Shown: positions 11,858-61,364, counted from the first letter of the stretch. The stretch: 62,753 nucleotides of DNA from an uncultured Erysipelotrichaceae bacterium (GCA_948442015.1 CAOJRP010000006.1:1-62753), one strand, 5' to 3'. The notes: generated by a model not told the origin, from the letters alone. Numbers and translations are program-made.

Positions 11858-12133
11858 CTAAAATTCGATTTTGTCACCGTCTTTAACAGTAACAATTGCT
11901 TTCTTATAAGTTTTTGTCATTCCAGTATATCTTCCAACTCTTTTTTTCTTTGCTTTAGTATTTAATGTATTTACTTTCGTAACAGTTACTTTAAATGCTG
12001 CTTCAATAGCTTTTTTGATTTGAATTTTATTAGCACTTTTTGCTACTTTGAATGTATATACATTATTTTCAGAAACAGTTGCTGATTTTTCAGTAATTAC
12101 TGGAGCGATAATAATATCAGTATAATCTTTCAT
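11858..12133 (-). CDS. rplW: 50S ribosomal protein L23
   Basis: PVITEKS, YKKAIVT. Confidence 0.98.
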
Positions 12134-14811: not shown

Positions 14812-14937
14812 AATATCACCACTCAATTGCTTTTACATCCTACAATCTTTTCTATCACTTGTCAATGAATTTCAAATGTAACAAAGCGTATACTAAATAT
14901 ATTATATGTGTTAAAATATTTGAAACGAGAAAGAAAT

Positions 14938-44947: not shown

Positions 44948-45005
44948 AAATAAAATCTCCTCTATTAATATTATGAAGGAGATTTAAAATATTTAATCAA
45001 ACTTA

Positions 45006-46259
45006 TTATAAATTTTTTATAAATGTACTAAGAGATTCCCCTTTAACCACTCTTATTCTTGGTAATAAGTAAGGATCCATGCCTTTTTTGGCTTTTCCAA
45101 ATACTGTTGTAAGTCCCACTTTAAAACCAGCTTCTTTTGTAATTGCTAATACTTGTTCATTAACATGTCCAAAAGGATAAGCTAATACGTCACTATTTCC
45201 AACTATAGATATACTTGTCTGTAAGTCCTTTAAACCATCATTATGATTTATACAAGTGAATTTACCATATCCATCGCAAGTAAGCCAGTGCATATCATGT
45301 GTGTGAGATCCAAAATTAATATAAGGAGAAGAATAGTTCTTAAAATACATTCCTGTCTCCCACCTCGTCATTAAAAAGCAAGTAGCGGGTACACCATATT
45401 TGTTTAAAATAGGTACAGCATATAAAGGAACAGATTTATGCCAATCATCAATTGTTATAACAACACTTTTCTCTGGTAATGTCTTTTTCCCATCAATAAA
45501 AGCTCTAACTTCATCCCATGTAGGAAAATAATAGTTATTATCTTTTAAATATTTAATTTGTTCTTCAAATAATTTGATTTCTAAGTAATTGTTATCTTTG
45601 GCTACTTCGCCATTTTCTTCACTATAGAAAAAATGATACATTAATATTGGAATACCTCTTCCTGTTCCATTAGTTACTGCACTAATAACTTTCTTTTTAA
45701 CATTGATTATTCTTTCAGTATTTACTTCATTTCCAGATGAGTCTTTTACTTTATAAATAATCTTATATTGTCCTTTCGTCTTGTAATCAACTTCATCAAT
45801 CACTTCAACATTATCTGTTATATCCCCATCATAATTATCAATTGCCGTATATCCTTCTTCTTTATAAGCAGCTTTCTTTGTATCAGTAAAGTAAATAGTG
45901 TATTCTTTTTTTCCTTTTAAAGTAATCTCTGGAGAAATATTATCAACTACTTTAACAATTCTTTTTTCTTCATTAGTATGTTTTAAATATTTAGTATTAA
46001 AACTATAATTTATTTCGTAAGTACCAACTTTACTAGAATCTACTTCTCCTCTAATTTTAATATCTTTAGAATAATCTTTATTTAAAATAGTTAGTTTTGC
46101 TCCTTCTTCATTATAGTTTTCATTTAAAGGGATAATTATTTCCTGTTCTCCATTAATAGCTAATACTGGTTTTACACATAAATAAATATATAAACTAGGT
46201 ATTATCAATATTAATAAAAAAGTAATTACTATAATTAAAATAACTTTTCTCTTTCTCAT
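45006..46259 (-). CDS. Membrane-anchored polysaccharide deacetylase with Ig-like (DUF5011-type) repeats
   Basis: N-terminal TM, YTAIDNYDGDIT, PILMYH, ITIDD, SHTHDMH, AYPFG. Confidence 0.92.
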   Translation of the reverse strand: MRKRKVILIIVITFLLILIIPSLYIYLCVKPVLAINGEQEIIIPLNENYNEEGAKLTILNKDYSKDIKIRGEVDSSKVGTYEINYSFNTKYLKHTNEEKRIVKVVDNISPEITLKGKKEYTIYFTDTKKAAYKEEGYTAIDNYDGDITDNVEVIDEVDYKTKGQYKIIYKVKDSSGNEVNTERIINVKKKVISAVTNGTGRGIPILMYHFFYSEENGEVAKDNNYLEIKLFEEQIKYLKDNNYYFPTWDEVRAFIDGKKTLPEKSVVITIDDWHKSVPLYAVPILNKYGVPATCFLMTRWETGMYFKNYSSPYINFGSHTHDMHWLTCDGYGKFTCINHNDGLKDLQTSISIVGNSDVLAYPFGHVNEQVLAITKEAGFKVGLTTVFGKAKKGMDPYLLPRIRVVKGESLSTFIKNL

Positions 46260-46308
46260 ATTTCTCACCATTTATATAGTAACACAAAATAAACCTTTTT
46301 TAATATAG

Positions 46309-46324
46309 TTATGTTATAATATTT
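46309..46324 (+). repeat. att core (integrase-side junction) TTATGTTATAATATTT
   Basis: Identical to 58152-58167; 52 bp from the integrase stop codon. Confidence 0.85.
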
Positions 46325-46370
46325 CAAATTTTGAAGAAAACCTTTATAAACAAAGGGTTTTAAAAACAGT

Positions 46371-46391
46371 TTGTTACTAACTTGTTATTAG
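46371..46391 (+). repeat. Putative integrase arm-type sites (TTGTTACTAAC tandem)
   Basis: ttgttactaac-ttgttattag here; ctgttactatc-ttgttactaac at 58040-58061; inverted pair at 51980-52000. Confidence 0.65.
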
Positions 46392-47393
46392 TTCAATTGC
46401 ATATTTTAGTTCTTCAAGTGTTTTATGTGTATAAACTCTTTCACCAACTTCTTTGGATTTGTGACCCATTAACATATCAATACATTTCTTATTTGCACCT
46501 GCTGAATCCAATCTACTTCTGAATGTATGTCTGCATTCATGTGGTGTATGATCCATTTTAAATTTTTCCATTAAATCATCCCATATTTTATAATATAGAT
46601 AACTTGATAACTTTTTCCCATCTAGTTCAAATAAATAAACTTGTCCAGATTCCACCCTAGATTTGATTATATTGAAGATTTTGGAATGAATAGGTATAAT
46701 CCTATTCTTACCAGCATTTGTCTTTGTACCACCTTGTATTGTGCCTTGTTCAAGGTCTATATCTGTAATTTTAATATTTAAAAGTTCACTAATTCTAAAA
46801 CCCGTGTATATGAATACTAATATTGAATCAACCCATTCTTCTTTTTCATGTTCCCACAATATCTTAATTTCTTCTTCAGTGAATGGGATTTTAGTTGTTT
46901 CAGGAATACTTTCAGCAGTAGTTAATTGTGCATAAGACTTATTTATAACATCTAGTTCTAAAGCAAATTTATCTAAATGACCAAATAAATTTTTAATTGC
47001 CCATTGTGTTGAATAACCACAACCACAATTATCAATACAATCTTGCATGTGAAATGATTTTAAATCCTTATACTTCATATCATGATATTTTTTAGTGTGT
47101 TTAAATGCTGAAGTTAGTGAACCTCTAGTTGATTTATTTAATTTTAATAATTTCTTTTCTTGAAATAATTTCCATAATTCTTTTAATGTAACCTTAACTG
47201 CATCTACATCATAAGGATCATTATTATATAATGCTAACATAATATTTCCTTCTTCTCTTGTAGGTGCATATCCAATTGTTAAATAAATAGGGTGACCTTT
47301 TTCATTCCATCCAGTGGTTTTTCTTACTGCAAATGGATTTCTTCTGTTTCCTGATAATTTAACAACTGATCCATAACCATTTGGATTTTTCAT
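46377..47393 (-). CDS. Tyrosine recombinase / phage integrase (start MKNPNG)
   Basis: YTGFRISEL (R), KT.AG, HECRHTF (HxxR), MGH, VYTH (Y). Confidence 0.97.
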   Translation of the reverse strand: MKNPNGYGSVVKLSGNRRNPFAVRKTTGWNEKGHPIYLTIGYAPTREEGNIMLALYNNDPYDVDAVKVTLKELWKLFQEKKLLKLNKSTRGSLTSAFKHTKKYHDMKYKDLKSFHMQDCIDNCGCGYSTQWAIKNLFGHLDKFALELDVINKSYAQLTTAESIPETTKIPFTEEEIKILWEHEKEEWVDSILVFIYTGFRISELLNIKITDIDLEQGTIQGGTKTNAGKNRIIPIHSKIFNIIKSRVESGQVYLFELDGKKLSSYLYYKIWDDLMEKFKMDHTPHECRHTFRSRLDSAGANKKCIDMLMGHKSKEVGERVYTHKTLEELKYAIELITS

Positions 47394-47523
47394 TTTATCA
47401 AATTCCTTTCTAATTTTTTTTACATATGACATTTGACTAAATCCCAAGAAAATGATAAAATGATATTGTCAAATATGGGAATTAGAATGACTTTCTTTTC
47501 ATTATTTGATTAAATTTAGACTT

Positions 47524-47550
47524 TGTTCCTTGTGCTGTCACACAGGGAAC
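47524..47550. terminator. Hairpin between repressor and integrase
   Basis: gttccttgtg-loop-cacagggaac. Confidence 0.65.
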
Positions 47551-47556
47551 TATTTT

Positions 47557-47994
47557 TTATTTTGTGTTTTGAGAATCATCATTTGGTGATTCTTTTTTGT
47601 ATTTTGGAATTAAAGTAAGATCATCAACAACTTCAATTGCTTTTTGCTTTCCTTTTGAATTTAATTCATCAAAAGATTCAAGTATGTTTACATAATCAGA
47701 ACCAAAAGTATTTTGAATTTGTTCAATAGTGTTTACCTTTTCTTGAAGTTTTTCTTTTATTGAACTTTCTTCCCAACCTTTTAATGTATTGTCATTAACA
47801 CCAGAATTTAACCAAAGTTCAGATACATTGAATGTCTTACTTATAAGTTTAATATTTCTAATAGATAGGTTTCTTGTTCCATTCTCTATATTAGATATTC
47901 CTGATTTTTTTAATCCAATTTTTTCACCAAATTCTTCTTGTGTTAAACCTAATGACAATCTTAATTCTTTAACCCTATTACCAATATCACTCAT
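47557..47994 (-). CDS. XRE-family master repressor (CI/Stl-like)
   Basis: LRLSLGLTQEEFGEKIGLKKSGISNIENG; divergent from a Cro-like gene. Confidence 0.9.
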   Translation of the reverse strand: MSDIGNRVKELRLSLGLTQEEFGEKIGLKKSGISNIENGTRNLSIRNIKLISKTFNVSELWLNSGVNDNTLKGWEESSIKEKLQEKVNTIEQIQNTFGSDYVNILESFDELNSKGKQKAIEVVDDLTLIPKYKKESPNDDSQNTK

Positions 47995-48095
47995 CAAAAT
48001 CCTCCTTCTATAATTGGTACAAGTACATTATATATCAAAAAATTATGTTTGTAAACATTATTTACCCAAAAGTTTTCAAAAGTTCACAAAAGTTA

Positions 48096-48125
48096 TTGAC
48101 AAGTACACAAAAGATATATTATAAT
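48096..48125 (+). promoter_or_regulatory. Rightward (lytic-type) promoter of the element
   Basis: TTGACA-18-TATAAT; overlapped by the repeat aagtWcacaaaag (48080 and 48101), a possible operator. Confidence 0.7.
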
Positions 48126-48159
48126 GTATTCATACAGAACAAGAAAGAAGGTGAAAAAT

Positions 48160-48366
48160 ATGAAAATTGATAAAGAAAAATTACAATTAGCAATAGCAAA
48201 AAAATGTTATACAATTAATGATTTAGCAGAAAAAGCAGAAATTTCAAGAAATAGTATTAATGCTTATATGTCAGGAAGAAAAAATCCTAAACCAATGACA
48301 GTTGGAAAAATAGCAAGGGTTCTTGAAGTAAAAGTGGAAGATATAGTTAAAACGGAAAACAATTAG
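48160..48366 (+). CDS. Cro-like HTH regulator
   Basis: TINDLAEKAEISRNSINAYMSG. Confidence 0.85.
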   Translation: MKIDKEKLQLAIAKKCYTINDLAEKAEISRNSINAYMSGRKNPKPMTVGKIARVLEVKVEDIVKTENN

Positions 48367-48403
48367 TCTAAATTTATTCAAAGTGAAAGGAAATGATAGA
48401 AAA

Positions 48404-48817
48404 ATGAATAAAAAAATTGCAAGTGGAATTTATAAAGTTAATGTTGTAAAAATGGAATTGAAAGGATCTAAAAATGATGATCCAATGGTTTCAATTTGGT
48501 TTAAGGTTGTACCACAAGGTAAATATACCAATAAATTAATATTTATGAACCAGGTGATTACAGAAGGTTATCAGATTCATATTGTAAATGAATTATTAAG
48601 AAGTTTAACTGAAAATTTAACTGATGTAGATATAGAATTTATTAATTATCCCCAATATTCAAAACTATTAGATGATGTTGTTAAAAAGATAAGAAATAAA
48701 TTTATTTACTTACTAGATTATAGGCAAAATACTAAAGGATATAAATTATTTAAAATTGTAAAAACATTTGATGTTAAAGAAAAAGGAAGCAACCTGAATG
48801 TTAAAATTACAAAATAA
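48404..48817 (+). CDS. DUF669-like phage protein (possible ssDNA-binding)
   Basis: GIYKVNVVKMELKGSKNDDPMVSIWFKV..GKY.NKLIF. Confidence 0.7.
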   Translation: MNKKIASGIYKVNVVKMELKGSKNDDPMVSIWFKVVPQGKYTNKLIFMNQVITEGYQIHIVNELLRSLTENLTDVDIEFINYPQYSKLLDDVVKKIRNKFIYLLDYRQNTKGYKLFKIVKTFDVKEKGSNLNVKITK

Positions 48818-48844
48818 AAATATAAAAAGGAAGGTGGTGATATA

Positions 48845-50836
48845 ATGGATGAATTTTTTAAAGGATATGTAAAAACTAAAGATAAAAAGTGCATGGAAAA
48901 GTTCAAAAATAGAAATGATTTTAAATCTTATGAAGAAGTAAAAGACTTACCTGAATTTGCAGGAATTCTTGCAGACAATACTATTTTAGTTGATATTGAT
49001 GATAGTGAACAAGCAGAACTTATGATGAACATTGTTGAAGATTTTCAACTTAATTGTAGAGTTTATCAAACAACTAGAGGGAAACATTTTCTATTCAGAA
49101 ATACAAACATTGAAAAATGTTATACCCATTGCAATTTAGCATGTGGAATAACTGCTGATATTAAAGTTGGATGTAAAAATTCATATGAAATTCTTAAATT
49201 TGATAATAAAGAAAGATTTATTGAATGGGATATTGAAGAAGGCATGGAATATCAATCTATTCCTAAATGGATGACACCAGTAAAAAATAGTACAGATTTT
49301 CAAAATATGGAAAATGGTGATGGAAGAAATCAAGCATTATTTAATTATATCCTAACCTTACAATCAAGTGATTTTTCAATAGAGGAAGCAAGAGAAACTA
49401 TAAAAATCATTAATAATTATGTTTTGAAAGAACCATTATCAGATGATGAATTGGATGTAATATTAAGAGATGATTCATTTAAGAAACCTATTTTTTACAA
49501 GGGAAATTCATTCTTATTTGATAAATTTGCTTTATTTTTAAAGAATAATCATCATATCAAAAGGATTAATAATCAATTACATTTATTTAAAGATGGAATA
49601 TACATTACTGGTCAACAAGAAATTGAATCAGCAATGATCGAGCATATACCACAATTAAATAGAGCAAAAAGAACAGAAGTAATGTCATATTTAGATATTT
49701 TGATTAGAGAAAATACACCAGTTACACCAGCAAAATTTATTGCTTTTAGGAATGGGATTTTAAACATTGATACAAATGAATTATTACCTTATTCACCTGA
49801 TTTTATTATTACTAATAAAATTGAATGGGATTATAACAAAAATGCTTATTCTGAAGAAGTTGATGAAGTATTAAATAATATTTCTTGTAATGATAAAGAA
49901 ATAAGGGAATTACTTGAAGAAATTGTTGGATCTTGCTTTTACAGATCACAAACACTTGCTGGTGGAAAAGCTATTGTTTTAGTCGGAAATGGTGCAAATG
50001 GTAAATCCACATATCTTAAATTGCTAAAAAAAGTTTTAGGTGATGAAAACACTTCAGCACTTGATTTAAGAAAGTTAGATGATAAATTTTCTACTGTTAT
50101 GATGTTTGGAAAATTAGCAAACATTGGGGATGATATAAATGATAAAATTATTTGTGATATGTCCTTTTTTAAAAAGGTTGTAACTGGGGAAACTGTTCCA
50201 GCACAACAGAAAGGTCAACCCCAATTTGATTTTGCCCCATATTGTAAATTAATATTTAGTGCAAATAATATTCCTAGAATGGGTAATGGTATGGATTCAT
50301 TTGCAATTCGTAGAAGATTAGTCATTGTTCCATTTAATGCTAAATTTACAAAAGGCAACGAAAATTATAACTTAAATATTGTTTCTTCATTATCTACACA
50401 ATCAAGTATGGAATATTTAATTAAATTAGGGGTTGAAGGATTAAAGAGGATATTACAAAATAATGATTATACTACTTCAGATAAGGTTCAATCTGAAATG
50501 AAAGATTATCAAATGGCAAATGATCCTATTTTTGCTTTTATAATCGAAGAACAAGAAAAAATAAGTGTTGATGGTGCAAAAGTCTTTGAGAATGAATTTC
50601 AAAAGGATGTAAAAGCAAGATATGAAGTCTTTTGTATAAATAATGGTTTTAATAATGACAAAATTCCAGATAATATGTTTACAAAAAAATTAAAACTATA
50701 TATACCTACTTTAGAAACAACAAGACCTAGGGTAAATATAGAAACTAAAAATGCTGAAGGAAGACTTCAAAATAAAAGTATTAGAAAAACACAATATGTT
50801 TATATGGACACAATAAACAAAAATAGGACAAGTTAG
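48845..50836 (+). CDS. Primase-helicase, phage/plasmid P4 family (D5-like SF3 helicase)
   Basis: VDIDD and TTRGKHF (prim-pol), GDGRNQAL (PriCT), GNGANGKST Walker A, LANIGDDI, IFSANNIP. Confidence 0.93.
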   Translation: MDEFFKGYVKTKDKKCMEKFKNRNDFKSYEEVKDLPEFAGILADNTILVDIDDSEQAELMMNIVEDFQLNCRVYQTTRGKHFLFRNTNIEKCYTHCNLACGITADIKVGCKNSYEILKFDNKERFIEWDIEEGMEYQSIPKWMTPVKNSTDFQNMENGDGRNQALFNYILTLQSSDFSIEEARETIKIINNYVLKEPLSDDELDVILRDDSFKKPIFYKGNSFLFDKFALFLKNNHHIKRINNQLHLFKDGIYITGQQEIESAMIEHIPQLNRAKRTEVMSYLDILIRENTPVTPAKFIAFRNGILNIDTNELLPYSPDFIITNKIEWDYNKNAYSEEVDEVLNNISCNDKEIRELLEEIVGSCFYRSQTLAGGKAIVLVGNGANGKSTYLKLLKKVLGDENTSALDLRKLDDKFSTVMMFGKLANIGDDINDKIICDMSFFKKVVTGETVPAQQKGQPQFDFAPYCKLIFSANNIPRMGNGMDSFAIRRRLVIVPFNAKFTKGNENYNLNIVSSLSTQSSMEYLIKLGVEGLKRILQNNDYTTSDKVQSEMKDYQMANDPIFAFIIEEQEKISVDGAKVFENEFQKDVKARYEVFCINNGFNNDKIPDNMFTKKLKLYIPTLETTRPRVNIETKNAEGRLQNKSIRKTQYVYMDTINKNRTS

Positions 50837-51032
50837 GTACAAGCATAAATTATTAACTTGTCCTTGATTTTTACAAATAAATAAAAGGATTTTTAAGATT
50901 ATGGACAGGTGGACAAGTTAAATTCAATTTATTTATAAAATATAATACACTAAAAAAAAAGTATTAATAAATTTTTTTATATACAGAAAAAAAAGAATAT
51001 AAATTAACTTGTCTTCTTGTCCAACATGTCCA
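50805..51032. other. Putative replication origin of the element
   Basis: GGACA(AGTT) iterons at 50805, 50826, 50903 and 50911, with inverted copies at 50855 and 51006-51031 flanking an AT-rich core directly downstream of the helicase. Confidence 0.75.
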
Positions 51033-51064
51033 TTTATCTTTTATGAAAGGAAGATGAAAATTAT

Positions 51065-51349
51065 ATGAAAACTAGAAATTTTAATGAACTGAAAGATTGT
51101 ATACCTAAAGAAGTATATGATCATATAAAAAATAATTATGCAGGTGATGCTTTTTACATATCTACTAAAGATTATGAATTTTCATCACCTACAGAAAAAA
51201 TAAAATACATTCAAAAATTGTATTTTGGTGGTAAATCGGTGAAATATATAGCAAATGAACTTGGAATGTCTGAAGATCGAGTTAATCATCTTAAAAATGC
51301 TAAATTAAAAAAAGATAATGCTAATAAAGTTGAACCTGAAAAAACCTGA
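51065..51349 (+). CDS. Mor-like transcription activator / HTH protein
   Basis: IKNNYAGDAFYI followed by HTH GKSVKYIANELGMSEDRV. Confidence 0.7.
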   Translation: MKTRNFNELKDCIPKEVYDHIKNNYAGDAFYISTKDYEFSSPTEKIKYIQKLYFGGKSVKYIANELGMSEDRVNHLKNAKLKKDNANKVEPEKT

Positions 51350-51902
51350 AATTATAATCAGAACTTAACAAAACTTAACATTCAAGAAAAAAAAGTATAT
51401 TTGAAAACCTCACAAAACCTCACATTCACCATAAAAATGCTAACAAATGCTAACCTTTAAACATATATTAAGAACCTTACAAAACCTGACATTCTATTTA
51501 AAAATTATTAATAAAACTTGTTATTTGGATTATTCAATTGTTAAGGTTTAAAGATATATAATGTTGTTATACAAGTAGATAGTAAAATGCTAGGAAATGC
51601 TAGGGTTCAAACTATTGATAAGATTCATAGTGACAAAATTGTTAGTATTCAACAGTATTTACGAACTAGAATACTTACAAATGCAAACATAATAAAATAT
51701 AAAGTGGCAGAGAAAAGTAGAGTTTGTGATGCAATTGAAAACACTAACAAATACTAACATTCGAAACTTATTTGAATGGTTGAATTGATAAGGAATGATA
51801 AGGTTAAAACTTATATAGCAAATGTTGACAAATGTTGACCTTTAAATTTATATAAAGGGATTGATTTTATGTTATTTTTATAAGAATAACATAACCTGAA
51901 TT
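51333..51902 (+). repeat. Array of 10 or more distinct 10-bp tandem doublets resembling terS gene fragments (candidate pac-site array)
   Basis: (aaacctgaaa)x2, (aacttaacaa)x2, (aaacctcaca)x2, (aaatgctaac)x2, aaccttacaa/aacctgaca, (aaatgctagg)x2, acactaacaa/atactaaca, (tgataaggaa)x2, (aaatgttgac)x2, some copies imperfect; no long ORF. Confidence 0.85.
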
Positions 51903-52077
51903 ATCGGCTTTAAATATAAGGATTTTATGTTTAATAAATGGTAAAATTATATTGTCAAAATATATTCGAAAGGTAGGTATTAGTAACAGGTTAGTAACAA
52001 AAATACAAATATTGTCTAGTATTCCTACACTTTAGAAATATTAGGCAATATTTTTGTTTGAAAGGATGGTATATATC

Positions 52078-52695
52078 ATGGGTAAGTTGAACAGAGAATT
52101 TTTAAAGGATTTGGGCATAGATGATAAAGATGTTGTTGATGCAATTCTTGATGAACATTCCAAAATAATTGGTGAAGTTAAAAAAGAACTAAATACTGTT
52201 AATGCTAAATTTGAATTTTTGAATCAAAAAAATGATGAATTAACTAGCGAATTAAAAGATAGGGATAATCAACTTAATGATTTAAAAAATTCTACTGAAG
52301 ATGTTGCAGGATTAAAGAAAACTATTGAAGATTTACAAAACACTAATAAGACATGTGATGAAGCACATAAGAATGAAATTAATGATCTTAAAAAATCATT
52401 TGCAATTGAAAATGCTTTAAGAGATGCTAAAGCAAGAAATATTATTTCAGTAAAAGCATTACTTAAATTAGATGAAATTGAATTAAAAGAAGATGGTTCA
52501 TTAAAAGGATTATCTGAACAACTTGAAACTCTTAAAGGTGCTGAAGATAGTAAGTTCTTATTTGATACTGAAACTAGAACCTTAAAAGGGGCAATTCCAG
52601 GGGAAACAGGTATGGATGATCCTAGTACCAAAATTGATTTATCAAAAATGACTTATGATGAAAGAAATGCATATTTTGAAGGTGATTTTGATTGA
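52078..52695 (+). CDS. Phage scaffolding protein (minor structural protein GP20 family)
   Basis: LNREFLKDLGI, coiled coil, AKARNIISVKALL, GLSEQLETLK...FLF, KMTYDE. Confidence 0.88.
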   Translation: MGKLNREFLKDLGIDDKDVVDAILDEHSKIIGEVKKELNTVNAKFEFLNQKNDELTSELKDRDNQLNDLKNSTEDVAGLKKTIEDLQNTNKTCDEAHKNEINDLKKSFAIENALRDAKARNIISVKALLKLDEIELKEDGSLKGLSEQLETLKGAEDSKFLFDTETRTLKGAIPGETGMDDPSTKIDLSKMTYDERNAYFEGDFD

Positions 52696-53153
52696 ACGAG
52701 AAAGAATTACTAAATCAAGTGAAATTAAATAGCAATATAGAGATTATTTATAAAAATTTGTGGGCAGTTAATTTTGATTATTTATCAAATGGTTGGTTAC
52801 AAGGTATTACTATTGATAATTTAGATATTGAAAGTTATTTAACAATAGTTGAATTCGGAATAAATAGTTCTACTACTGTGATCCTAAACAAAGGACATAA
52901 AAATTATGAAAAAATACTATCAGTTTTTAAATTTATTATGAAACTATCTATTAAAGAAATGCAAAACAAAAATACATTTTATAAGTGGTTTAGATGCAAT
53001 TTTAAAAACTATAAAAAATATTCAAATGTTCAAATTGATTCTTTACTAAAAAAGCATGATATATCAAAAGTAAAGGAATTTTATAATCAATCATGTCTTT
53101 TAGAAATTCAAAGAAGAAGGGATGAAAAAATCAGAAAAAAGAAAGGTAGGTGA
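52692..53153 (+). CDS. Hypothetical protein
   Basis: ORF overlapping the scaffold stop and tape-measure start, suggesting translational coupling. Confidence 0.7.
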
Positions 53154-53158
53154 TAGTT

Positions 53159-55141
53159 ATGGCAAGTATTACAACTGCAATACATCTAACTGATAATATG
53201 ACACCAGTATTAAGAAATATAACTGGTGCAATGGATTCAACTCTTGATATTTTTGAAAATATGGACAGTGAAATGAATAAATCATTTGATACTTCCAAAA
53301 TAAATTCTGCAAGAATTGCAATTGATCAAGTAAATGCTTCATTAAATTCAATGGAAGATAATCTTAATAAAAACTATCAACAACAAAATAAATTAAATAA
53401 GGAAATTCAAGATGGTAAAAACAAAGTTGATAATATGATGGGTTCTGTTGTTTCTTTAGTTTCTGCATATGCTGGATTTAAAACAATTGGTAAATTAGTC
53501 AATTTATCAGATGAATATACTCAAACAAGAGCAAGATTAAATTTAATGAATGATGGTTTACAAACTACTGATGAATTGCAGCAAAAAATATTTAATTCTG
53601 CACAAAGAGCAAGATCATCTTACCAAACACAAGCAGATATAGTTGCAAAACTTGGACAAAGAGCAGGTGATGCTTTTAAATCCAATAATGAAACAATTGC
53701 ATTTGCTGAAAATTTAAGTAAGTTATTTGTTATTGCTGGTGCAAGTCAACAAGAAATGGCATCAGCATCATTACAATTAACCCAAGCATTAGGTTCAGGT
53801 GTTCTTCGTGGTGAAGAATTAAATGCAGTATTTGAATCAGCACCAAATGTTATTCAAACAATTGCTGATTATTTAGATGTTCCAATTGGTAAAATTCGTG
53901 AAATGGCAAGTGATGGTAAAATTACTGCTGATATAGTAAAGAATGCTCTACTAGGTGCTACAAATGATATTAATAGTCAATTTGATAGTATTCCTATGAC
54001 TTGGTCACAAGTATGGACTGGTGTTATGAATGAATTATATGTGGCAACACAACCTATATTAGAATTAATTAATTTACTAGCACAAAATTGGTCAATTATA
54101 GAACCAATTGTAATTGCTTTAGCAACTGCAATTGGATTATATACGGCTGCATTATTAACCTACAACACAATTGTTGGTATTTCCAACATGCTTACTGCAA
54201 CTAAGGCTGCAATGGATGCTTTGGCAGCAGGCAAAACTTTTATGTGGACTGCTGCACAATATGGTTTTAATGCTGCTTTGTTAGCATGTCCATTAACATG
54301 GATTTTGTTAATTATTATTGCAGTTATTGCTGCAATTTATGCAGTAGTAGCAGCCATAAATAAAGCAAAGGGTACAACAGTTAGTGCTACTGGTGTAATA
54401 TGTGGAAGCATTAATGTAGTTTTACAATTTTTTAAGAATTTAGGATTATTTATTGCAAATGTTGCTTTGGGTATTTGGAATGCTTTGGGTGCTTGTGCAT
54501 CAAATATTGGTATTGCATTTAATAATGTTATCTGTAATATTAAATCGTGGTTTTATGGTTTATTAGAAACAGTTATGGATGTTATTGCTGGAATAGTAAA
54601 AACATTGAATAAATTACCATTTATTGATATTGATGTATCAGGTATTACAAGTAAAGCAGATGAATATGCTGCAAAGAAAGCAGAAGCAGAAAATAATAAA
54701 AAAGATTATGAATCAGTAAGTGAAGCATTTAATAAAGGAATGAATACTTTTGATGCCTTTGAAACTGGATGGGTTTCAGATGCATATAATGCAGGTTACA
54801 AAGTTGGTGAAAATGTTGATTCTGCAATAGGAAATTTCTTTGGTGGTGGGGATATTCCTGATATGGCTAGTGATTTAGGTGATCTTGGAAATTCAGCATC
54901 AAAAATTGCATCAGATACTGGTTCAATTAAGGATTCATTAGATATAACTTCTGAAGAATTAAAATATTTAAGAGATTTAGCAGAAAGAGATGTTGTTAAT
55001 AGATTTACTACTGCTGAAATTCATGTTGATATGGGCGGTATTACAAACAATGTATCAAATAATAATGATCTTGATGGAATTATTAATTATCTTGTTGAAG
55101 GTGTTGAAGTTGCTATGGAAGAAACTGCTGAAGGGGTATAA
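53159..55141 (+). CDS. Phage tape measure protein (~660 aa)
   Basis: Tape_meas-type domain ([22 protein letters not shown]), Ala-rich hydrophobic central region, C-terminal [18 protein letters not shown]. Confidence 0.92.
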
Positions 55142-55182
55142 ATTTTTACAAAATGATTTGAAATAAGGAAGGATGATGAGAT

Positions 55183-55899
55183 ATGAAAAATAGTTTAGAA
55201 AAAATTTTAAAGGAACATTCAGATTTAACTGATAAAACGAATGAAAAAATTGAAAATGTGATTGAAAGTTATAGAAATAATACTTTTGCACAAAGAATGA
55301 TAAATCATGAATTGGCATCAATGATTAATGAAGAAATTGAAAAAATAGTAGAAGAATATAAGGAAAGTGAACAAAAACTTCAAGTTACCTTTGAAGAAAT
55401 TGTTAATAAGGAAAAAGATAGAATTATCCATATGAATGAAAATACATCTGCAGAATACTCAATTAGAATAAATAATGCATTAAATTTCTTAAAAGCATCA
55501 GATGATACACTTACAGATGATACCGCTCATATAATGTTGGAAGATTTTGAAAAGGATTATAAGACAATGCACCTATTCAAACAAATTATTGAAAATAGTA
55601 ATGGTTTATGCGTTATTAATCCATTAGATCCTACTGATGTTAAATTTCCTAAAACATTTGGAAACTTTAGCAATAAATTAAAGTGTTTCAATATTTTAGA
55701 TGAACTTACTAAAAATTCGAAAGATGCATTAAAATACTTTTTACGAGATAAAAACTTTGTTATAAAAGATGGTGATGCATCAAAAGGAATTGGAAGACTT
55801 ACTTGGGATTTTTCAGTTCCTAGTCCAGGTTATGCTTCAATGACTGGAAATGATGTTATTTTAGAACTTTTACAAAAATATGAAAAAATAGAAATTTAA
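55183..55899 (+). CDS. Hypothetical protein
   Basis: 238-aa ORF with RBS. Confidence 0.75.
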   Translation: MKNSLEKILKEHSDLTDKTNEKIENVIESYRNNTFAQRMINHELASMINEEIEKIVEEYKESEQKLQVTFEEIVNKEKDRIIHMNENTSAEYSIRINNALNFLKASDDTLTDDTAHIMLEDFEKDYKTMHLFKQIIENSNGLCVINPLDPTDVKFPKTFGNFSNKLKCFNILDELTKNSKDALKYFLRDKNFVIKDGDASKGIGRLTWDFSVPSPGYASMTGNDVILELLQKYEKIEI

Positions 55900-55920
55900 A
55901 GAAGGATTGGTGGATTATTT

Positions 55921-56118
55921 ATGAATGAATTTGAATTACAAGATGAAATTCTTGAAAAATTAAATGAAATGAAAAAACTTGCTGAAGAAATATATCCCTT
56001 AACAAGAAAATATTCTCAAATAATGCTTTATGGTGATTCATCTATTTTTGTTTCATTTGCACCTGATAGCCTTGAAAAGAAACTAATTGATGATGGAATT
56101 ATGACATATAAGAGGTAA
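55921..56118 (+). CDS. Small hypothetical protein
   Basis: 65-aa ORF in an operon context. Confidence 0.6.
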   Translation: MNEFELQDEILEKLNEMKKLAEEIYPLTRKYSQIMLYGDSSIFVSFAPDSLEKKLIDDGIMTYKR

Positions 56119-56122
56119 TAAC

Positions 56123-56350
56123 ATGGATGACTTTAATTATGAAATAAAAGAAAAATTTGGAACTTTAAGTGAAAAAAGTGATGGAAAATTTACTTTAGAA
56201 TTAAATTTGATTAGTTATAGAGGAAAAGAAGATAAATTTGATTTGAGAAGATGGGATCGATCATGTGACAAGATGTTAAAAGGTCTTGCACTTGATAAAG
56301 AAGAAATAATTGCTTTAAGGGATATATTAAATAACATAAAATTTGATTAG
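56123..56350 (+). CDS. PC4/YdbC family ssDNA-binding protein
   Basis: FGTLSE...LELNLISY..KFDLRRW...KMLKGLAL. Confidence 0.9.
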   Translation: MDDFNYEIKEKFGTLSEKSDGKFTLELNLISYRGKEDKFDLRRWDRSCDKMLKGLALDKEEIIALRDILNNIKFD

Positions 56351-56370
56351 CAGACTTATTATCTGCTTTT
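56349..56370. terminator. Terminator hairpin between convergent units
   Basis: agcaga-loop-tctgct followed by ttt. Confidence 0.55.
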
Positions 56371-56403
56371 CATTTGCACAAAATTAAAAGACATATTACT
56401 ATG

Positions 56404-56586
56404 TCATTTATCCAAATTTTTAGGTTTATCCTTATTAAACCATTCATCAATTTTATTATTCTTGATAGCATCTCTAAATTCTTTTACTTCTTTTTTCTCT
56501 TTATTGGTCAACTTTCTTTTCTTACCATTATTTTTAATACCTGGTATTTCGTTGATCCATCTAGGTTTTGAATTACTTTGTTCCAT
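56404..56586 (-). CDS. Small basic hypothetical protein downstream of abiEii
   Basis: GAGG RBS within the abiEii end; 60 aa. Confidence 0.5.
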   Translation of the reverse strand: MEQSNSKPRWINEIPGIKNNGKKRKLTNKEKKEVKEFRDAIKNNKIDEWFNKDKPKNLDK

Positions 56587-56589
56587 AAA

Positions 56590-57411
56590 TTATACCTCAA
56601 TAGTTTCAAATGAAGAAAAGTATTCAATTACATTTTTAATAACTTTATTTACAGGTAAATCTAACCAATTTACTTTAGGATCATTAAGCATATTATAATA
56701 TCTTTCTGAATTTAATATTTGCTTCAATCTTATTATAATATCAGTCATATTATTTTCTTTCATAGTAATATCTTTAAAAATTAAAATATCAAAGCAATCT
56801 ACTAATTTTTGTTTATCAATTCCTGCTATATTAATTAAATAGTAAAAATCAAATAAATCTTTGTATCTTGTTGATCTAAAACCTAATTTTAATAAGGATT
56901 TAAGTTTTTCTGTTAGAATCTGTTCTTTTGAATTTATGAGAAGGTTGGCATGTTTGTCAATAATATCAAAACTAAAGCAATATTCATCTTGTTCAATATC
57001 AAATTGTTTGTGGATTCCTATATCAAGTTTAGTATTAATACTATTTCCGTATGTATCTGATAATCTTATATTAACTCTTTTACCATCATAATCTTGATGA
57101 TGTAGTTTCTTGATTGTTCCAATAATAGATATATCAATATTGTCTTTGATATTATTTAATTTATCTATAAAGTTTTTAATTGAATCATCTTCTAAAGAGT
57201 ATTTGATAAAATCCAAATCAAGATCACGAGTTGCTCTACGCTTGTCTTTAGATATATTATGCATAACAACACCACCTTTAATGGTTATATGTTCTCTAAA
57301 ATTACTATTAGATATTTTTAGTAATAAAATGTCCTGACACACTTTGGAACTTGCATCAGCATACTCATATCCTGTTTTGGTGTATTCTTCAATCATACTT
57401 TCAATATTCAT
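56590..57411 (-). CDS. abiEii: AbiEii/AbiGii nucleotidyltransferase toxin (type IV TA)
   Basis: IKGGVVM, RATRDLDL, EKLKS, STRYKDLFDFY. Confidence 0.93.
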   Translation of the reverse strand: MNIESMIEEYTKTGYEYADASSKVCQDILLLKISNSNFREHITIKGGVVMHNISKDKRRATRDLDLDFIKYSLEDDSIKNFIDKLNNIKDNIDISIIGTIKKLHHQDYDGKRVNIRLSDTYGNSINTKLDIGIHKQFDIEQDEYCFSFDIIDKHANLLINSKEQILTEKLKSLLKLGFRSTRYKDLFDFYYLINIAGIDKQKLVDCFDILIFKDITMKENNMTDIIIRLKQILNSERYYNMLNDPKVNWLDLPVNKVIKNVIEYFSSFETIEV

Positions 57412-57953
57412 TAAAACACCTCTCTTTGCAATGCTTCTGATAGTTTTAAATCGTTTTTAAATAATGATAAATAATTTTCTATTTTTTGCATATCTAAATC
57501 ATCAATAATATCTCTATAATTAGCAATTATCTCTTTGTAATAATCGAATGGCATTTGCTTTCTTTTTCTTATAAGTTCAACAAGTAATCTTTCTTTGTCA
57601 TACATATACACATCTTGATTATTAATTTTAACAATAGTTTTCCCAACATCTAAAATATTTTTATTAGTAAATATTTGTACTATCTTATCATTTTTGATAG
57701 TACGGTATTTGCTAGGTGTAGCAAGATAAACTTTATTTGGTATAACATCAGTTAATTCATAATAATAGAATGCTGAATCCATCGTAATAACTGCATAGGG
57801 GTATTTTTTAGAATAGAGTAATAAAGGATCAACAATCTTTTTGTCTGAATAAATACCATGTTCAAGTTTATATAATTCATTTGTTTTTAATGCTTTTTGA
57901 ATATTGTATCTAGTTCCATATTTTTTAATTAATTCATCATATGAATATAACAT
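57411..57953 (-). CDS. abiEi: AbiEi-type antitoxin / transcriptional regulator
   Basis: KLEHGIY, SAFYYYELTDVIP, YDKERLLVELIR; coupled to abiEii. Confidence 0.88.
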   Translation of the reverse strand: MLYSYDELIKKYGTRYNIQKALKTNELYKLEHGIYSDKKIVDPLLLYSKKYPYAVITMDSAFYYYELTDVIPNKVYLATPSKYRTIKNDKIVQIFTNKNILDVGKTIVKINNQDVYMYDKERLLVELIRKRKQMPFDYYKEIIANYRDIIDDLDMQKIENYLSLFKNDLKLSEALQREVF

Positions 57954-57986
57954 AAAACTCACCTCAAAATCATTTTAACATAACGA

Positions 57987-58011
57987 TAGGTAAAAATCAA
58001 TAAGTTACCTA
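57987..58011. promoter_or_regulatory. Inverted repeat upstream of abiEi (possible autoregulatory operator)
   Basis: TAGGTAA-N11-TTACCTA. Confidence 0.5.
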
Positions 58012-58151
58012 ACAAAATGCAAATTAGTAACTAATAAATCTGTTACTATCTTGTTACTAACAAACTCTAATTTAATCTACTGAACTTATCTGAAAAGTTC
58101 AGCAATATCTTATATTTCCTTGATTTATAGTATCTATGAAATTGAACTTTT

Positions 58152-58167
58152 TTATGTTATAATATTT
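58152..58167 (+). repeat. att core (distal junction) TTATGTTATAATATTT
   Basis: Identical to 46309-46324. Confidence 0.85.
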
Positions 58168-58186
58168 TTAGTTGGAGGGTTTGGAA

Positions 58187-58879
58187 ATGAGTGAATGTTA
58201 TTCTAAAGCTAGTGACTGTGAAAAATTAGCTATGTATTTAAAGAATAAAATGGGTAGTAGTATTGAGTTTGTTTACAATGTTCATAATCAAATAGTAGAA
58301 GGGAAATATTTTCATTATCATAGAAAGCCATATAATGAGATTGAACGCTTATTTGAAGATGGAATTTATTTCTTTTGTAAGTATTGTGAAAATGATTTTT
58401 TAAAAATTGGTATAAGTGACTCTAATCATCATAAATGTTCTCTAGGTGAACAACTAGCTGCTTTGAGTGCATTTTATGAGGTATTAAGTGAAAAGTTTGG
58501 AGAGCCTTTAGTTTTTTATATTTTAAAAGATGATAATGAACAAAAGATAAATTTACAATGGTCGTTTGTTAATAAGGAAGAAGATATTAAAAACTTTAAA
58601 AATGGTACTTACTTTGATGATAGGAAAATAGAGAGATTAATTATTTTTGGAGAACAAAAAGTTAATGCTATTGGATATCAAATTGGCGAAATAGCAAGAA
58701 AGAATAATGCAAGAATTATTGGACTTCCTTTTGATTTATTTCCTTTAGTAGAAGAAAATATGGAGGATTATGTTAAATATAAAACAGGCAGCCAAATTGG
58801 GGTGCCTGAAGGTTCAAGATTAGATTGTACTCCTGTAGTTTCATATGATAATGATATGACTTTAGAAAAAAGATTTTAA
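58187..58879 (+). CDS. Hypothetical protein (start MSECY)
   Basis: GGAGG RBS; extended -10 lies in the att core. Confidence 0.75.
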   Translation: MSECYSKASDCEKLAMYLKNKMGSSIEFVYNVHNQIVEGKYFHYHRKPYNEIERLFEDGIYFFCKYCENDFLKIGISDSNHHKCSLGEQLAALSAFYEVLSEKFGEPLVFYILKDDNEQKINLQWSFVNKEEDIKNFKNGTYFDDRKIERLIIFGEQKVNAIGYQIGEIARKNNARIIGLPFDLFPLVEENMEDYVKYKTGSQIGVPEGSRLDCTPVVSYDNDMTLEKRF

Positions 58880-58880
58880 A

Positions 58881-59846
58881 TTACTTTTTAATTATTTCTT
58901 TTATAACTTGTGTTTCGACACAAGTTTTTTCTTCCTGAAGTTCTTCACATTTAAGCTTTAAATTTGTAAGTACTTGTAATACTTCTTTTCTTTTTTTCTG
59001 TACATCTTCTAAATCACTTTGATAAAATTCTATATTTCCTGTTTCTAAATTAACCCATTCTACTCCATTAAAAGAAACATAAGGCGAGTAGATATCACTT
59101 ATACAAATCTCAACATCACAATTTGTATCTTTATTAGAAACTATAAGTTTGCTTGAGCATTTTAATTTACTTTTTCTGTCCATATCTACTAAAGATGCAT
59201 CAAAGAAAACTTCTCTACTTGTAATAATAGATTTTTTAATTTCTATTTTATCCGCTTTGATATTTAATAAACCATTTTTCTCATTTGTTGAAATAGTAGA
59301 ATTAACTATGTTTACTTTGTTAGCATTAATATCTATTTTTGAACAATATTTATTTCCAAAATTTTCATTGATAAAATTTAGTTCTTCTACTTTGCTACAA
59401 GAAACAGTCCTAAAAAATACTCCATTACTAATACTACTAGTCCCATCATAATAAAGATTATTCATCAATGTAAGTTTATCTGCACAATGTATTTGGATAT
59501 AAGAATGAGAAAAAACACAATTTTTAAATGTTACATCACAAAAAGAACAAGACAAAATTATGGGAACATCAAAAGTAATACCATCAAAAATATAATTGAC
59601 TCTTTTATCTAATTTAAAATAATCTATTTTTTCTTGAAATATTTTATTGATTCCGTTTAAATCAAAATGATAAAAAGATGGTTTAACCCTTTTATCGAGT
59701 AATTCTTGTCTTACCATAATAGTTATAGTCTCATCAGTTTCTATTACTTCACCAATATTCGTTACTGAACTATACAGAAAATTTTTTCTTTCAAATTCAT
59801 ATAGTAAATTATTTGCCTTTTCTTCAATAAATTTTAATACTTCCAT
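58881..59846 (-). CDS. Hypothetical protein, possible beta-solenoid
   Basis: Periodic I/V-x-I-x-N-S/C strands (VTFKNCVF, VNIVNSTI, IEIKKSII). Confidence 0.7.
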   Translation of the reverse strand: MEVLKFIEEKANNLLYEFERKNFLYSSVTNIGEVIETDETITIMVRQELLDKRVKPSFYHFDLNGINKIFQEKIDYFKLDKRVNYIFDGITFDVPIILSCSFCDVTFKNCVFSHSYIQIHCADKLTLMNNLYYDGTSSISNGVFFRTVSCSKVEELNFINENFGNKYCSKIDINANKVNIVNSTISTNEKNGLLNIKADKIEIKKSIITSREVFFDASLVDMDRKSKLKCSSKLIVSNKDTNCDVEICISDIYSPYVSFNGVEWVNLETGNIEFYQSDLEDVQKKRKEVLQVLTNLKLKCEELQEEKTCVETQVIKEIIKK

Positions 59847-59966
59847 ATCACAAACTCCTTAAATTATATTAACATATTTTTTTGAAAAATATGTTAATTT
59901 TACTATTTGAGAAAAAATCACTTTAAGGAAATTTTACTTTACAAAAAAAGAAAGCAATAACACTTT

Positions 59967-61364
59967 CTACACATAAGCTGCAATTACTAATAAGATTAAC
60001 ACAATAAATATTAAACCTAATAAAAACTTCCACATATTCTTTAGATAATCTTTATAAGATATATCTAAATAACTTAGGCCAATCATTAAAATAGCACTAG
60101 TTGGTAATAAAAACTGTACAACTCCAAAAATACTATTAATAACTAAAGATATTACGATACCATTTGATGCATATAAAGCAGCAAGGTAATTAGCTATTGT
60201 AAAACTCATAAAGTCTTTATTTGGCATTAACATTGAACCAATAAATATTACTAAAATAATTTTAAATAAGTTAAAGTCAGAACCTACTTCAATTAATTTA
60301 TTTGTAATATATGGTAATATTGGAGACCAATAAGAAATTACAAACAAACAATTAACCATTAAATAGATAAATATTGGCTTAGCCATTTTTTTAGCACCAT
60401 ATACACAAGAGTCTAAAAATTCATCTAATTTTATTCTTTCAATTAAAGAAATTATAAAAGCTCCAAACATTATTATTAAAGAAATTGTATATAAATCCCA
60501 TTCTCCAATGGCTTTTAAACTACCTAATAAATAGCCAAATACAGCATGTTCGCCAATTTTAAATGTTGTAATATTAGTATGTAAATCAGCAAAGAAGTTA
60601 ACATTAAAACTACTTTTCCATGGAATATAGCCTAATATTGCAAAAATTGCTACTATAGAAAGCACTATAATCATTGGCCAAGTACTTTCTTTTTTCTTAA
60701 CTTCTACAAGTTCAAATCTTGGATTAATTACTTCACTTTCCTTTTTAGCTTTTGGTAACATATGAGTAAAGGCCATTAACATTACAAAAGAAATACCTAA
60801 AAATGCAAATTTATAGCCTAATCCATCACTTACTTTTAAACCAAAACTTGACTCTGTATAACCTAAAGCTGAAACTCCATAAGTAATTCCTAAAGTTCCA
60901 ACTAAAATAGCCCCAAACGTAATACATAATCCTTTAATTTTACTAACATTATTTTTAGCTAAAACACTTAATATAAAAGGCACAAATAAAATACATACTA
61001 ATGGTTCAGCTGTAAATGATGCAAGAACTGCTAAAAATAAACCACAACCTACAGAAAATATCGTTTCTTTTCCTTTAATTTTTTTAGCTATTTTATAAAC
61101 TAAGTAGCTATATCTTTTACTTTTTGATAAAACTCCATATAAACAACCTGTTGCTAGTAAAAATGTAACTTGAAGTAACATATAATATGCTGAATAAAAT
61201 AATTCCAAAAAGAAATCAAAAATACTAATACGATATAATCCTACTTCTTGAAATACTGAGCCACTAAAATTACCTGTTGGAATAATCCAAGTTAAAATAG
61301 TTACTACTAGCACAACTAAAAACAAAATCTTAAACAAATCATTCTTCTTAAATAAATTTTTCAT
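59967..61364 (-). CDS. YfcC-like multi-pass membrane transporter
   Basis: ILTWIIPTG, GCLYGVL, LLPTSAILMIGLSYLDISYKDY. Confidence 0.8.
   Translation of the reverse strand: MKNLFKKNDLFKILFLVVLVVTILTWIIPTGNFSGSVFQEVGLYRISIFDFFLELFYSAYYMLLQVTFLLATGCLYGVLSKSKRYSYLVYKIAKKIKGKETIFSVGCGLFLAVLASFTAEPLVCILFVPFILSVLAKNNVSKIKGLCITFGAILVGTLGITYGVSALGYTESSFGLKVSDGLGYKFAFLGISFVMLMAFTHMLPKAKKESEVINPRFELVEVKKKESTWPMIIVLSIVAIFAILGYIPWKSSFNVNFFADLHTNITTFKIGEHAVFGYLLGSLKAIGEWDLYTISLIIMFGAFIISLIERIKLDEFLDSCVYGAKKMAKPIFIYLMVNCLFVISYWSPILPYITNKLIEVGSDFNLFKIILVIFIGSMLMPNKDFMSFTIANYLAALYASNGIVISLVINSIFGVVQFLLPTSAILMIGLSYLDISYKDYLKNMWKFLLGLIFIVLILLVIAAYV

Follow-up and report, generated by a model that had tools for sequence, protein, structure and literature searches.

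A mobile island with scaffold and tape measure genes in a mouse-gut Erysipelotrichaceae bacterium, a probable phage satellite related to temperate myophages

Is an integrated element that encodes a head scaffolding protein and a tail tape measure protein (TMP), together with an integrase and a replication module, a working phage satellite, or is it what deletions have left of a prophage? The question is raised by an island of 11,859 bp (24–33% G+C) at positions 46309–58167 of a 62,753-nucleotide (nt) stretch of DNA, hereafter the window, from the metagenome-assembled genome (MAG) of an uncultured Erysipelotrichaceae bacterium of the mouse gut. A preliminary description had seen in this island a layout resembling phage-inducible chromosomal islands (PICIs), and had suggested that scaffold, TMP and a repeat array resembling packaging (pac) sites might together define a new satellite family of uncultured gut Bacilli. 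Judged from its genes and those of its relatives, the island appears to be a functional, integrated, helper-dependent phage satellite, descended from the temperate myophages of murine-gut Bacilli and recombining with them; we give this reading a probability of about 0.6.

Genes were called on the open reading frames (ORFs) of the island by profile searches of Pfam, PHROGs and PADLOC. The head scaffolding protein homologue (213 amino acids (aa); 52054–52695, plus strand) matches PF06810 (E 6.5e-37) and phrog_194 (E 6e-43), and is full length, including the C-terminus. It is followed on the same strand by a gene for a 153-aa protein, o153 (52692–53153), which overlaps both of its neighbours by 4 nt, and then by the TMP gene (53150–55141, plus strand; 663 aa; PF20155, E 4e-50; phrog_1068, E 1.5e-193). 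Within the same bacterial family, only one of 300 other genomes had a TMP match at E ≤1e-20. No member of the large terminase (TerL), portal, capsid, sheath, tube, baseplate or lysin families was found among the island ORFs with Pfam and PHROGs, and none of the ORFs reached the family cut-off for a small terminase (TerS). The coexistence of scaffold and TMP without terminase, portal or capsid, as first described, is thereby borne out.

Loci encoding relatives of the TMP were fetched from IMG/VR (27 loci) and from species-representative genomes (20 loci). By tblastn, 15 loci had both scaffold and TMP genes. In 14 of them the scaffold lies 5.5–7.3 kb upstream of the TMP, which is the spacing of an ordinary myophage, and the scaffold–o153–TMP adjacency seen in the window recurs only in L035, a Bacilli MAG from the rabbit gut. 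Starting at attL, L035 and the window are collinear up to the point inside the TMP gene where the L035 contig stops, at about 80% nt identity and with open frames; at the amino acid level the identities are 82% for the integrase, 76% for the repressor, 72% for the cro-like protein, 85.5% for the primase, 68% for the small protein o94, 56% for the scaffold, 57% for o153 and 78% for the TMP. Between o94 and the scaffold, L035 encodes a 157-aa TerS (PF03592, E 8e-28). The L035 scaffold (5979–6524) stops short of the window and phage scaffolds, without the ≈30 C-terminal residues common to those two.

Relatives of o153 were identified with phmmer in four of the 51 other loci (L035, L007, L041 and L042), directly upstream of the TMP each time. 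These four have no ORF of the size of a TerL, portal, capsid or sheath gene between integrase or primase and TMP, and reading them gene by gene revealed a TerS (PF03592) in three (L035, L007 and L042). In L041, from Anaerotignum neopropionicum DSM 3847, we found an integrase, a helix-turn-helix (HTH) protein, a gene resembling that for a single-stranded DNA-binding protein (SSB), an o94-like Mor protein, a homologue of the distal island gene o238, a gene like sigma region 4, an o153-like gene and a TMP. L042, from a Flavonifractor isolate, has an integrase, a primase, a TerS, a sigma-70 factor, an o153-like gene and a TMP, and L007, a 10.5-kb IMG/VR contig, has a Mor-family protein, a TerS, an o238-like gene, two sigma-like genes, an o153-like gene and a TMP. 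(A second tyrosine integrase is encoded in L042 at 14602–15678, about 3.4 kb after the TMP, suggesting tandem islands at one site.)

When an alignment of o153 was used to seed a second scan, 30 IMG/VR loci were obtained, 13 of them on contigs of 9.7–13.5 kb. ORFs of at least 200 aa were listed in 11 of these loci, picked for having flanking DNA. In all except L070, an ORF of 627–890 aa begins within about 450 nt after the o153 match (10 of the 11 loci). When nine of the large ORFs after o153 were sent to Pfam, eight were PF20155 (TMP_3), and the ninth, from L068, aligns end to end with the window TMP (29% identity, E 2e-66). ORFs of about 630–660 aa lying upstream are D5 primases in L075, L089 and L077, while the D5 primase of L070 has 455 aa; a 267-aa ORF of L075 is a sigma-70 factor. 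Since the genes that follow the TMP are host-like (a permease in L069, proteins with SLH domains in L092 and L041), the TMP usually closes the island. Two virome contigs, MT836503 and MT835552, were considered as satellites and set aside as GC-rich phage fragments.

By gene content and order, the window island belongs to a family of 10–13 kb islands in Bacilli and Clostridia. Common to its members are a tyrosine integrase, an HTH switch, a D5 primase-helicase together with an iteron origin, a small HTH protein resembling Mor and a distal o153–TMP pair; most relatives encode a TerS and a sigma-70-like factor as well. Of the new family proposed for uncultured gut Bacilli, the conserved lineage of small islands (L035, L007, L041, L042 and the IMG/VR loci) is upheld, but its range has to be widened to Anaerotignum and Flavonifractor. 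The scaffold is not the signature of this family, being present only in the window and L035; the signature is o153 and TMP with an integrase and a D5 primase. Nor is freedom from terminase genes a family trait, given the TerS of L035, L007 and L042. In a rabbit-gut MAG (L044 9976–13071), fragments of a TMP gene, in ORFs of 151 and 200 aa, directly precede AbiEii and AbiEi genes at about 77% aa identity; no integrase, primase or o153 homologue was found nearby, and this locus looks like a decayed or rearranged copy.

The ends of the island are marked by two exact copies of the 16-nt core repeat TTATGTTATAATATTT, attL at 46309–46324 and attR at 58152–58167. The window contains no further match, 0.09 matches would be expected by chance, and none of 100 shuffles gave two. 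Exact matches to the arm-type motif TTGTTACTAAC lie on the plus strand beside attL (46371–46381) and attR (58051–58061). The window holds one other exact copy, at 51990 on the minus strand; this third site (51990–52000) is situated just 5' of the scaffold operon, distant from both island ends, and L035 has a similar pair of arm motifs in the equivalent position (≈5403–5425). The gene next to attL, on the minus strand, encodes a tyrosine integrase of 356 aa (46377–47447; PF00589, E 9e-21). After insertion, the attR copy is located about 5 nt 5' of the next host gene (58172). Scans of the whole window for tRNAs and Rfam families gave no match.

Words from the island occurred in 20 of the 24 listed metagenome runs, from nine studies and mostly from mouse gut, and the contigs of four runs were aligned to window positions 44000–60500. 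In one run, X1, which is possibly the sample that the window came from, a single contig spans the island and its flanks. In X11, which comes from another study, contigs of a copy that is about 98–99% identical (64 letters differ in 2.9 kb and 24 in 4.5 kb) leave the window at 46310 and 58165 and run on for 208 and 1187 letters into sequence unlike the window. Because these contigs pass into unlike sequence at the 16-nt repeat, the island sits there in another context with the same ends. The island is mobile, and its ends are exact. The X5 contigs end at 46310 and 58164. (Cover in X5 and X11 extended over the island but was scant or absent on its flanks, a difference that we did not count as evidence.) The joints listed as possible excision products had sides of 20–33 letters and scattered ends, and were taken as cross-matches in AT-rich sequence.

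Much of the island has a counterpart in a myophage prophage of about 43.6 kb in another mouse-gut Bacilli MAG (G301, locus L034), for which a region of 52 kb was examined. This prophage has genes for TerS, TerL, portal, scaffold, major capsid protein, sheath, tube, tail assembly chaperone (TAC), TMP and baseplate. Compared with it, the window integrase is 92% identical at the nt and 91% at the aa level, the SSB-like gene 71% (nt), the primase 82% and 73%, the scaffold 83% and 70%, the TMP 95.7% and 96% (both proteins have 663 aa), and the small gene o65b 95% (nt); the 130 nt beside attR (58037–58166) are 75% identical to the right end of the prophage. The block of high identity that includes the TMP extends from 40 nt before its start codon to 3 nt past its stop. 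The att core of the phage, beginning TATGATATAAT, and its arm motifs are present at both prophage ends and resemble those of the island. Both the island core and those of the G301 phage (L063 4243–4262; L065 7800–7818) also resemble extended –10 promoters (TGnTATAAT). No counterpart of o153, o94 or o238 was found in the G301 phage.

The identities do not follow one order of relatedness. The integrase, scaffold and TMP of the window are nearer to the G301 phage than to L035, while its primase is nearer to L035 (85.5% aa identity, versus 73% for the G301 phage and 48% for L042); for the integrase, the aa identities are 91% to the prophage, 82% to L035 and 70% to L041. This mosaic of uneven identities suggests that cassettes were repeatedly exchanged by two lineages, one of satellites and one of phages, that encounter each other in shared hosts. 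On these comparisons, the island is a reduced relative of the G301-type phage lineage that seems still to exchange cassettes with it, and a G301-type phage is its probable helper.

What o153 contributes beside the TMP was approached through its sequence and its predicted fold. Its relatives amount to 32 clusters among 1.84 billion protein representatives. The AF2 model (pLDDT 92.1) has a small β-sheet and a helical bundle. Foldseek searches of the PDB and BFVD returned no matches at E ≤0.001, a sequence search of the PDB gave nothing below E 0.35, and an Atlas search gave no usable match; the best hit in a wide VIA-align search (Z 5.7) covered the helical half only. A role as a TAC was considered and set aside, the hhalign probability against the phage TAC family being 0.3%, with no fold match. 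Prediction of an o153–TMP complex gave a score of 0.01, uninformative in either direction. L068 is a full myophage, its genes including those for portal, Mu F, capsid E, sheath and Baseplate_J. It encodes a TAC of the canonical kind (99.95% by hhalign against the phage TAC family) as well as an o153-like gene, and o153 as a replacement for the TAC was discarded too. In this phage the order at 8614–12551 is canonical TAC, a lipoprotein-like moron, the o153-like gene and the TMP. Because the gene also occurs in a full myophage, o153 is not specific to satellites. Its distribution indicates an accessory protein that travels with the TMP, neither confined to satellites nor a substitute for the TAC, and phages and satellites may pass the o153–TMP cassette to one another.

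Upstream of the scaffold operon, the array noted in the preliminary description is a real feature of the sequence. It occupies 51327–51851 on the plus strand and consists of eight units, each a doublet of 10 nt followed by bases resembling ATTCAAGA, with the consensus AAAACCTAAC AAAACCTAAC ATTCAAGA. In five of the eight units one half repeats the other exactly, yet is unlike the halves of other units. Seven of the 10-nt doublets lie in 51333–51839. All five matches to the doublet pattern in the window fall inside 51360–51839, against an expectation of 0.26. In the variant from X11, a 10-nt insertion, TTGTTAAGGT, behind 51537 turns a single 10-mer into an extra doublet, which suggests that the doublets arise through local duplication of 10 nt. 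The array encloses an ORF of 56 aa, o56 (51587–51757, plus strand), with no family match. L035 has three doublet units just upstream of its terS. In the G301 phage, of which 40 kb were searched, the doublet pattern matches once, inside the terS coding sequence, and runs on into the ATTCAAGA motif; the array unit at 51356–51391 matches a stretch inside this same gene. In phages of the pac type, the pac site is often located within terS or close to it. Because of this, and because of the doublet match in the terS of the G301 phage, we propose that the array represents candidate recognition (packaging) sites for a terminase.

The alternative is that the array binds o94, the small HTH protein (94 aa; 51065–51349, plus strand) encoded at its left end. 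Relatives of o94 were found with phmmer in L041 (4815–5090, E 4e-9) and L007 (2109–2369, E 5e-5), and these match PF08765, the Mor family (E 3e-4 for L041 and 2e-12 for L007). The window protein itself has weak HTH matches only and, at a laxer limit, sub-threshold matches to the TerS-like families PF10668 (E 0.012) and PF06056 (E 0.02). It is probably a distant relative of Mor-type activators, linked to them only through its own relatives.

The remaining genes of the left arm form a switch and a replication module. The HTH_3 repressor (146 aa; 47557–47997, minus strand; PF01381, E 5e-18) and a cro-like HTH_3 protein (80 aa; 48124–48366, plus strand; PF01381, E 3e-10) are separated by divergent sigma-70 promoters placed back to back, that of the repressor (48055–48027, minus strand) with 11 of 12 consensus matches and that of the cro-like gene (48096–48125, plus strand) with 12 of 12. 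Next, on the plus strand, come the SSB-like protein (144 aa; 48383–48817; phrog_7778, E 8e-37, with a weak DUF669 match) and a D5-type primase-helicase (D5_N/DUF5906; 663 aa; 48845–50836; PF19263 and PF08706; phrog_864, E 3.5e-176). A candidate origin lies 3' of the primase at 50826–51031, where five matches to the iteron GGACAAGTT, with at most one mismatch, are arranged in both orientations around an AT-rich stretch within 206 nt; a like arrangement is seen in L035 (4630–4860). The PICI-like layout, both att repeats, the arm sites and the intact ORFs had all been recognized at the outset, and gene order, strands and the exact motif matches agree with this.

Distal to the TMP, on the plus strand, lies o238 (238 aa; 55183–55899), a helical protein with an FPKTFG motif and homologues in L007 and L041. 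It has 10 database matches and a model with pLDDT 85.7; Foldseek found no match for its fold and Atlas no usable one, a VIA search returned generic and designed helical bundles only (best Z 11.3), and PADLOC gave a weak match to LeoA (E 5.6e-4). The Foldseek check proposed beforehand for the hypothetical ORFs was thus made for o153 and o238, and yielded no match for either. Three small genes follow on the same strand: o65a (55921–56118), with no significant family match; o75 (56123–56350), a small DNA-binding protein, PC4-like (phrog_26484, E 9e-13; PF02229, E 5e-4, below cut-off); and o65b (65 aa; 56374–56571), which is common to the island and the G301 phage (94.8% nt). The phage counterpart of o65b (L034 3307–3531, minus strand) is an antisense ORF between portal and scaffold, so that in the island the gene has another place and the opposite orientation relative to the scaffold. 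The AbiEii toxin (56590–57411, minus strand; PF08843, E 4e-20; PDLC02310, E 3.5e-104) and AbiEi antitoxin (57411–57962, minus strand; PDLC02238, E 5.4e-67) genes are adjacent, with an apparent 1-nt overlap at 57411, and constitute an AbiE type IV toxin–antitoxin pair. The host genes to the left of the island (42944–46271) encode a double AAA ATPase of Clp type, 667 aa long, and a 421-aa polysaccharide deacetylase that carries Ig-like surface domains.

If the island is a satellite, its life cycle might be as follows. Upon infection or induction of a helper phage, the switch would flip and the integrase would excise the island at the 16-nt core, after which the primase and the SSB-like protein would replicate it from the iterons. 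The helper terminase would package the island, being recruited in L035, L007 and L042 by the TerS of the element itself, and in the window copy, which has no TerS, by the doublet array that resembles a stretch of the helper terS. The scaffold homologue would enter procapsid assembly of the helper and may bias it towards small heads. If the 43.6-kb helper genome fills a T = 7 head, a T = 3 head, at ≈0.28 times this capacity, would hold ≈12.2 kb, near the 11.84-kb unit of the island (both T numbers are assumed). The island TMP, with o153, would replace that of the helper in the tail core, leading to chimeric tails as modeled on the Vibrio satellites discussed below, and AbiE would serve as defence cargo for the host. 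A more specific version of this scheme holds that the family swaps the tail core of its helpers by means of a cassette, made up of a TMP and the new-fold protein o153, that moves between satellites and myophages, and that the member without TerS substituted a terS-like array of at least eight variant units as packaging-site decoys, through which the helper terminase would package it. We put this forward tentatively and regard it as doubtful.

Several observations weigh against a helper-dependent satellite. The window copy lacks the TerS of its closest relative, L035 (with the L035 TerS as query, no match was obtained in the MAG of the window, G000, at E ≤1), and may be a disabled representative of the family. 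Queries with TerL and sheath revealed no helper-like phage in this MAG, which is 89.5% complete, and in six MAGs island and phage were never found together, o153 being confined to G000 and G302 and the sheath to G301, G304 and G305. With the same length as the phage TMP and 96% identity to it, the window TMP gives no evident sign of a change in tail length or of escape from a TMP-directed inhibitor. The partner protein, o153, has no likeness to the phage TAC and occurs in L068 beside a canonical TAC. Finally, neither an attP circle nor an empty site or excision joint was seen in the metagenome contigs, which cannot show rare forms. The preliminary description had held that full prophages as homologues, with this copy derived from them by deletion, or the absence both of an excised form and of a conserved architecture of about 12 kb, would speak against a satellite. 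The G301 prophage is indeed such a homologue as far as ancestry goes, but the island is not a fresh deletion product of it; the circular form was not seen, while a conserved architecture of 10–13 kb was.

The same observations can be read as signs of decay, the island being a remnant of a G301-type myophage that deletions have stripped of packaging, head, tail and lysis genes and left inert except for integrase-driven movement or vertical inheritance. The prophage-like gene order, the high nt identity of integrase (92%) and TMP (95.7%), the missing TerS and helper, and the example of L044, where TMP fragments beside AbiE show that such loci do decay, would all be expected of a remnant. A one-off deletion is nonetheless difficult to reconcile with L035, which keeps the reduced order with open frames at about 80% nt identity, and with the recurrence of the o153–TMP pair in other small islands. 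Moreover, o153, o94 and o238 are foreign to the G301 phage yet present in small islands of other bacterial orders, all frames of the window island are intact and translationally coupled, and the island is found with exact ends in a second flanking context. We therefore consider a defective prophage decidedly improbable. It is also improbable, if somewhat less so, that the island acts mainly in defence, with scaffold, o153 and TMP as decoys or poisons of myophage assembly alongside AbiE, and with no need for packaging. The AbiE genes fit such a role, as would the shortened C-terminus of the L035 scaffold, which might make it a dominant-negative form, and the Tab and Tai papers reportedly describe blocks of tail assembly directed at the TMP. 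Rta is a further TMP-directed block of this kind (PMC12987554). However, amplification and packaging are indicated by the TerS genes of L035, L007 and L042 and by a replication module with its own origin. Since interference and satellite transfer usually coincide, defence is better seen as a second function than as a competing explanation. Lastly, the island could be an element moved by conjugative mobilisation or natural competence in which the phage genes are passengers of recombination. Movement with exact ends into another context would suit this, and one paper is said to report satellites moved by competence. Since the Pfam and PHROGs scans of the ORFs turned up neither a relaxase nor an oriT or conjugation gene, and since the phage genes form the conserved core of the family instead of its variable cargo, we regard such an element as very unlikely.

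A helper-dependent satellite remains our preferred reading, and the findings reach beyond this locus. Small islands ending in a TMP gene are common in gut and anaerobic Bacilli and Clostridia, provided with a conserved partner protein of no known fold and often with their own sigma factor and TerS. They have probably been discarded as prophage fragments, since the standard detection model forbids tail genes. The relatives in cultured strains (Anaerotignum neopropionicum DSM 3847 and the Flavonifractor isolate) open the need for a satellite TMP to study at the bench, while the near-identical TMP of a full myophage points to a specific candidate for the helper and illustrates how genes continue to flow between satellite and helper.

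How, then, does the island compare with satellites already described? The head genes of PICIs and of the related SaPIs are presumably CpmA/B, Ccm or Rcm, whereas that of the island is a true scaffold homologue. Otherwise there is much in common with these elements: integrase and repressor run leftward, cro, primase and origin rightward, the size is about 12 kb, there is a head-assembly gene with accessory defence cargo, and a TerS is present in the relatives. SatelliteFinder defines a PICI by an integrase, a regulator, a primase-replicase, a capsid morphogenesis gene and a TerS, with tails and holins forbidden, and its regulation module is a homologue of AlpA, MerR or Stl (PMC10085698). The island has the integrase and the primase-replicase; for the regulator it has a divergent HTH_3 pair with consensus promoters (as judged outside the tool's own profiles), and for capsid morphogenesis a PF06810 scaffold homologue with a putative role in capsid size. 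It thus shows three or four of the PICI features by gene content. Because it lacks a TerS and contains a forbidden tail gene, SatelliteFinder, judged from its published definition, would probably reject the island and its relatives.

The resemblance to capsid-forming PICIs (cf-PICIs) is limited to the left arm of integrase, regulator and primase; the TerL, portal, capsid and head–tail adaptor or connector genes of cf-PICIs have no equivalent among the island ORFs. For P4-like elements, no Pfam or PHROG match to Sid, Psu or Delta was found in the island, and only the D5/alpha-type primase is common to both. The EPIPs of Mycolicibacterium are said to encode a scaffold, a TMP noted as unusual and an HTH regulator (preprint PMC12822802). 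They also have a serine integrase, a TerS, an adaptor and a stopper of the head-to-tail type and, as listed there, a major capsid protein, and their hosts are actinobacteria; by this description they differ from the island, whose integrase is a tyrosine recombinase and in which no TerS, adaptor or stopper was found.

To our knowledge, manipulation of phage tails by satellites was first shown only in 2025–26, in one Vibrio system. The PLEs of Vibrio cholerae have genes for a TMP and a TAC, to which one subtype adds a baseplate hub; they produce chimeric tails, and the PLE TMP is needed for efficient transduction, according to a report (PMC12987554, Nature 2026) that also notes putative tmp genes in other satellites, including some cf-PICIs (Extended Data Fig. 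10). From these sources, a scaffold and a TMP in a satellite are not as unprecedented as they had first seemed, since satellite TMPs are already in print for PLEs and EPIPs. The partner gene of the PLE TMP is a TAC with a solved TAC fold, whereas o153 holds the position before the TMP without a TAC-like profile or fold, and PLE TMPs are about 20% identical to that of the helper and of different length, whereas the island TMP is 96% identical to the phage protein and of the same length. The island also differs in its Gram-positive host, its presumably temperate helper and in having no baseplate hub gene among those found. The two are likened by gene content: both are small integrative satellites of contractile-tailed phages, at least as the island is read here, with their own TMP beside a small accessory gene, with no capsid, sheath or tube genes and with defence functions on board.

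By its defining genes, as read from sequence, the island is not a cf-PICI, a P4-like element, a PLE or an EPIP, which agrees with the initial view that it fits none of the families named there. The literature searched (full text, supplements excluded) contained no description of integrase–primase–TerS–TMP islands in Bacilli or Clostridia. The principle of a satellite-encoded TMP is already in print; the family, the o153 partner, the sigma factors and the candidate pac array are undescribed in that literature. The G301-type myophages (L034, L063–L065) differ from the island in their 43.6-kb size, their full set of packaging, head, tail and baseplate genes and their lack of o153, o94 and o238, but they have in common with it the type of integrase, the att core, the arm motif, the primase, the scaffold, the TMP and o65b.

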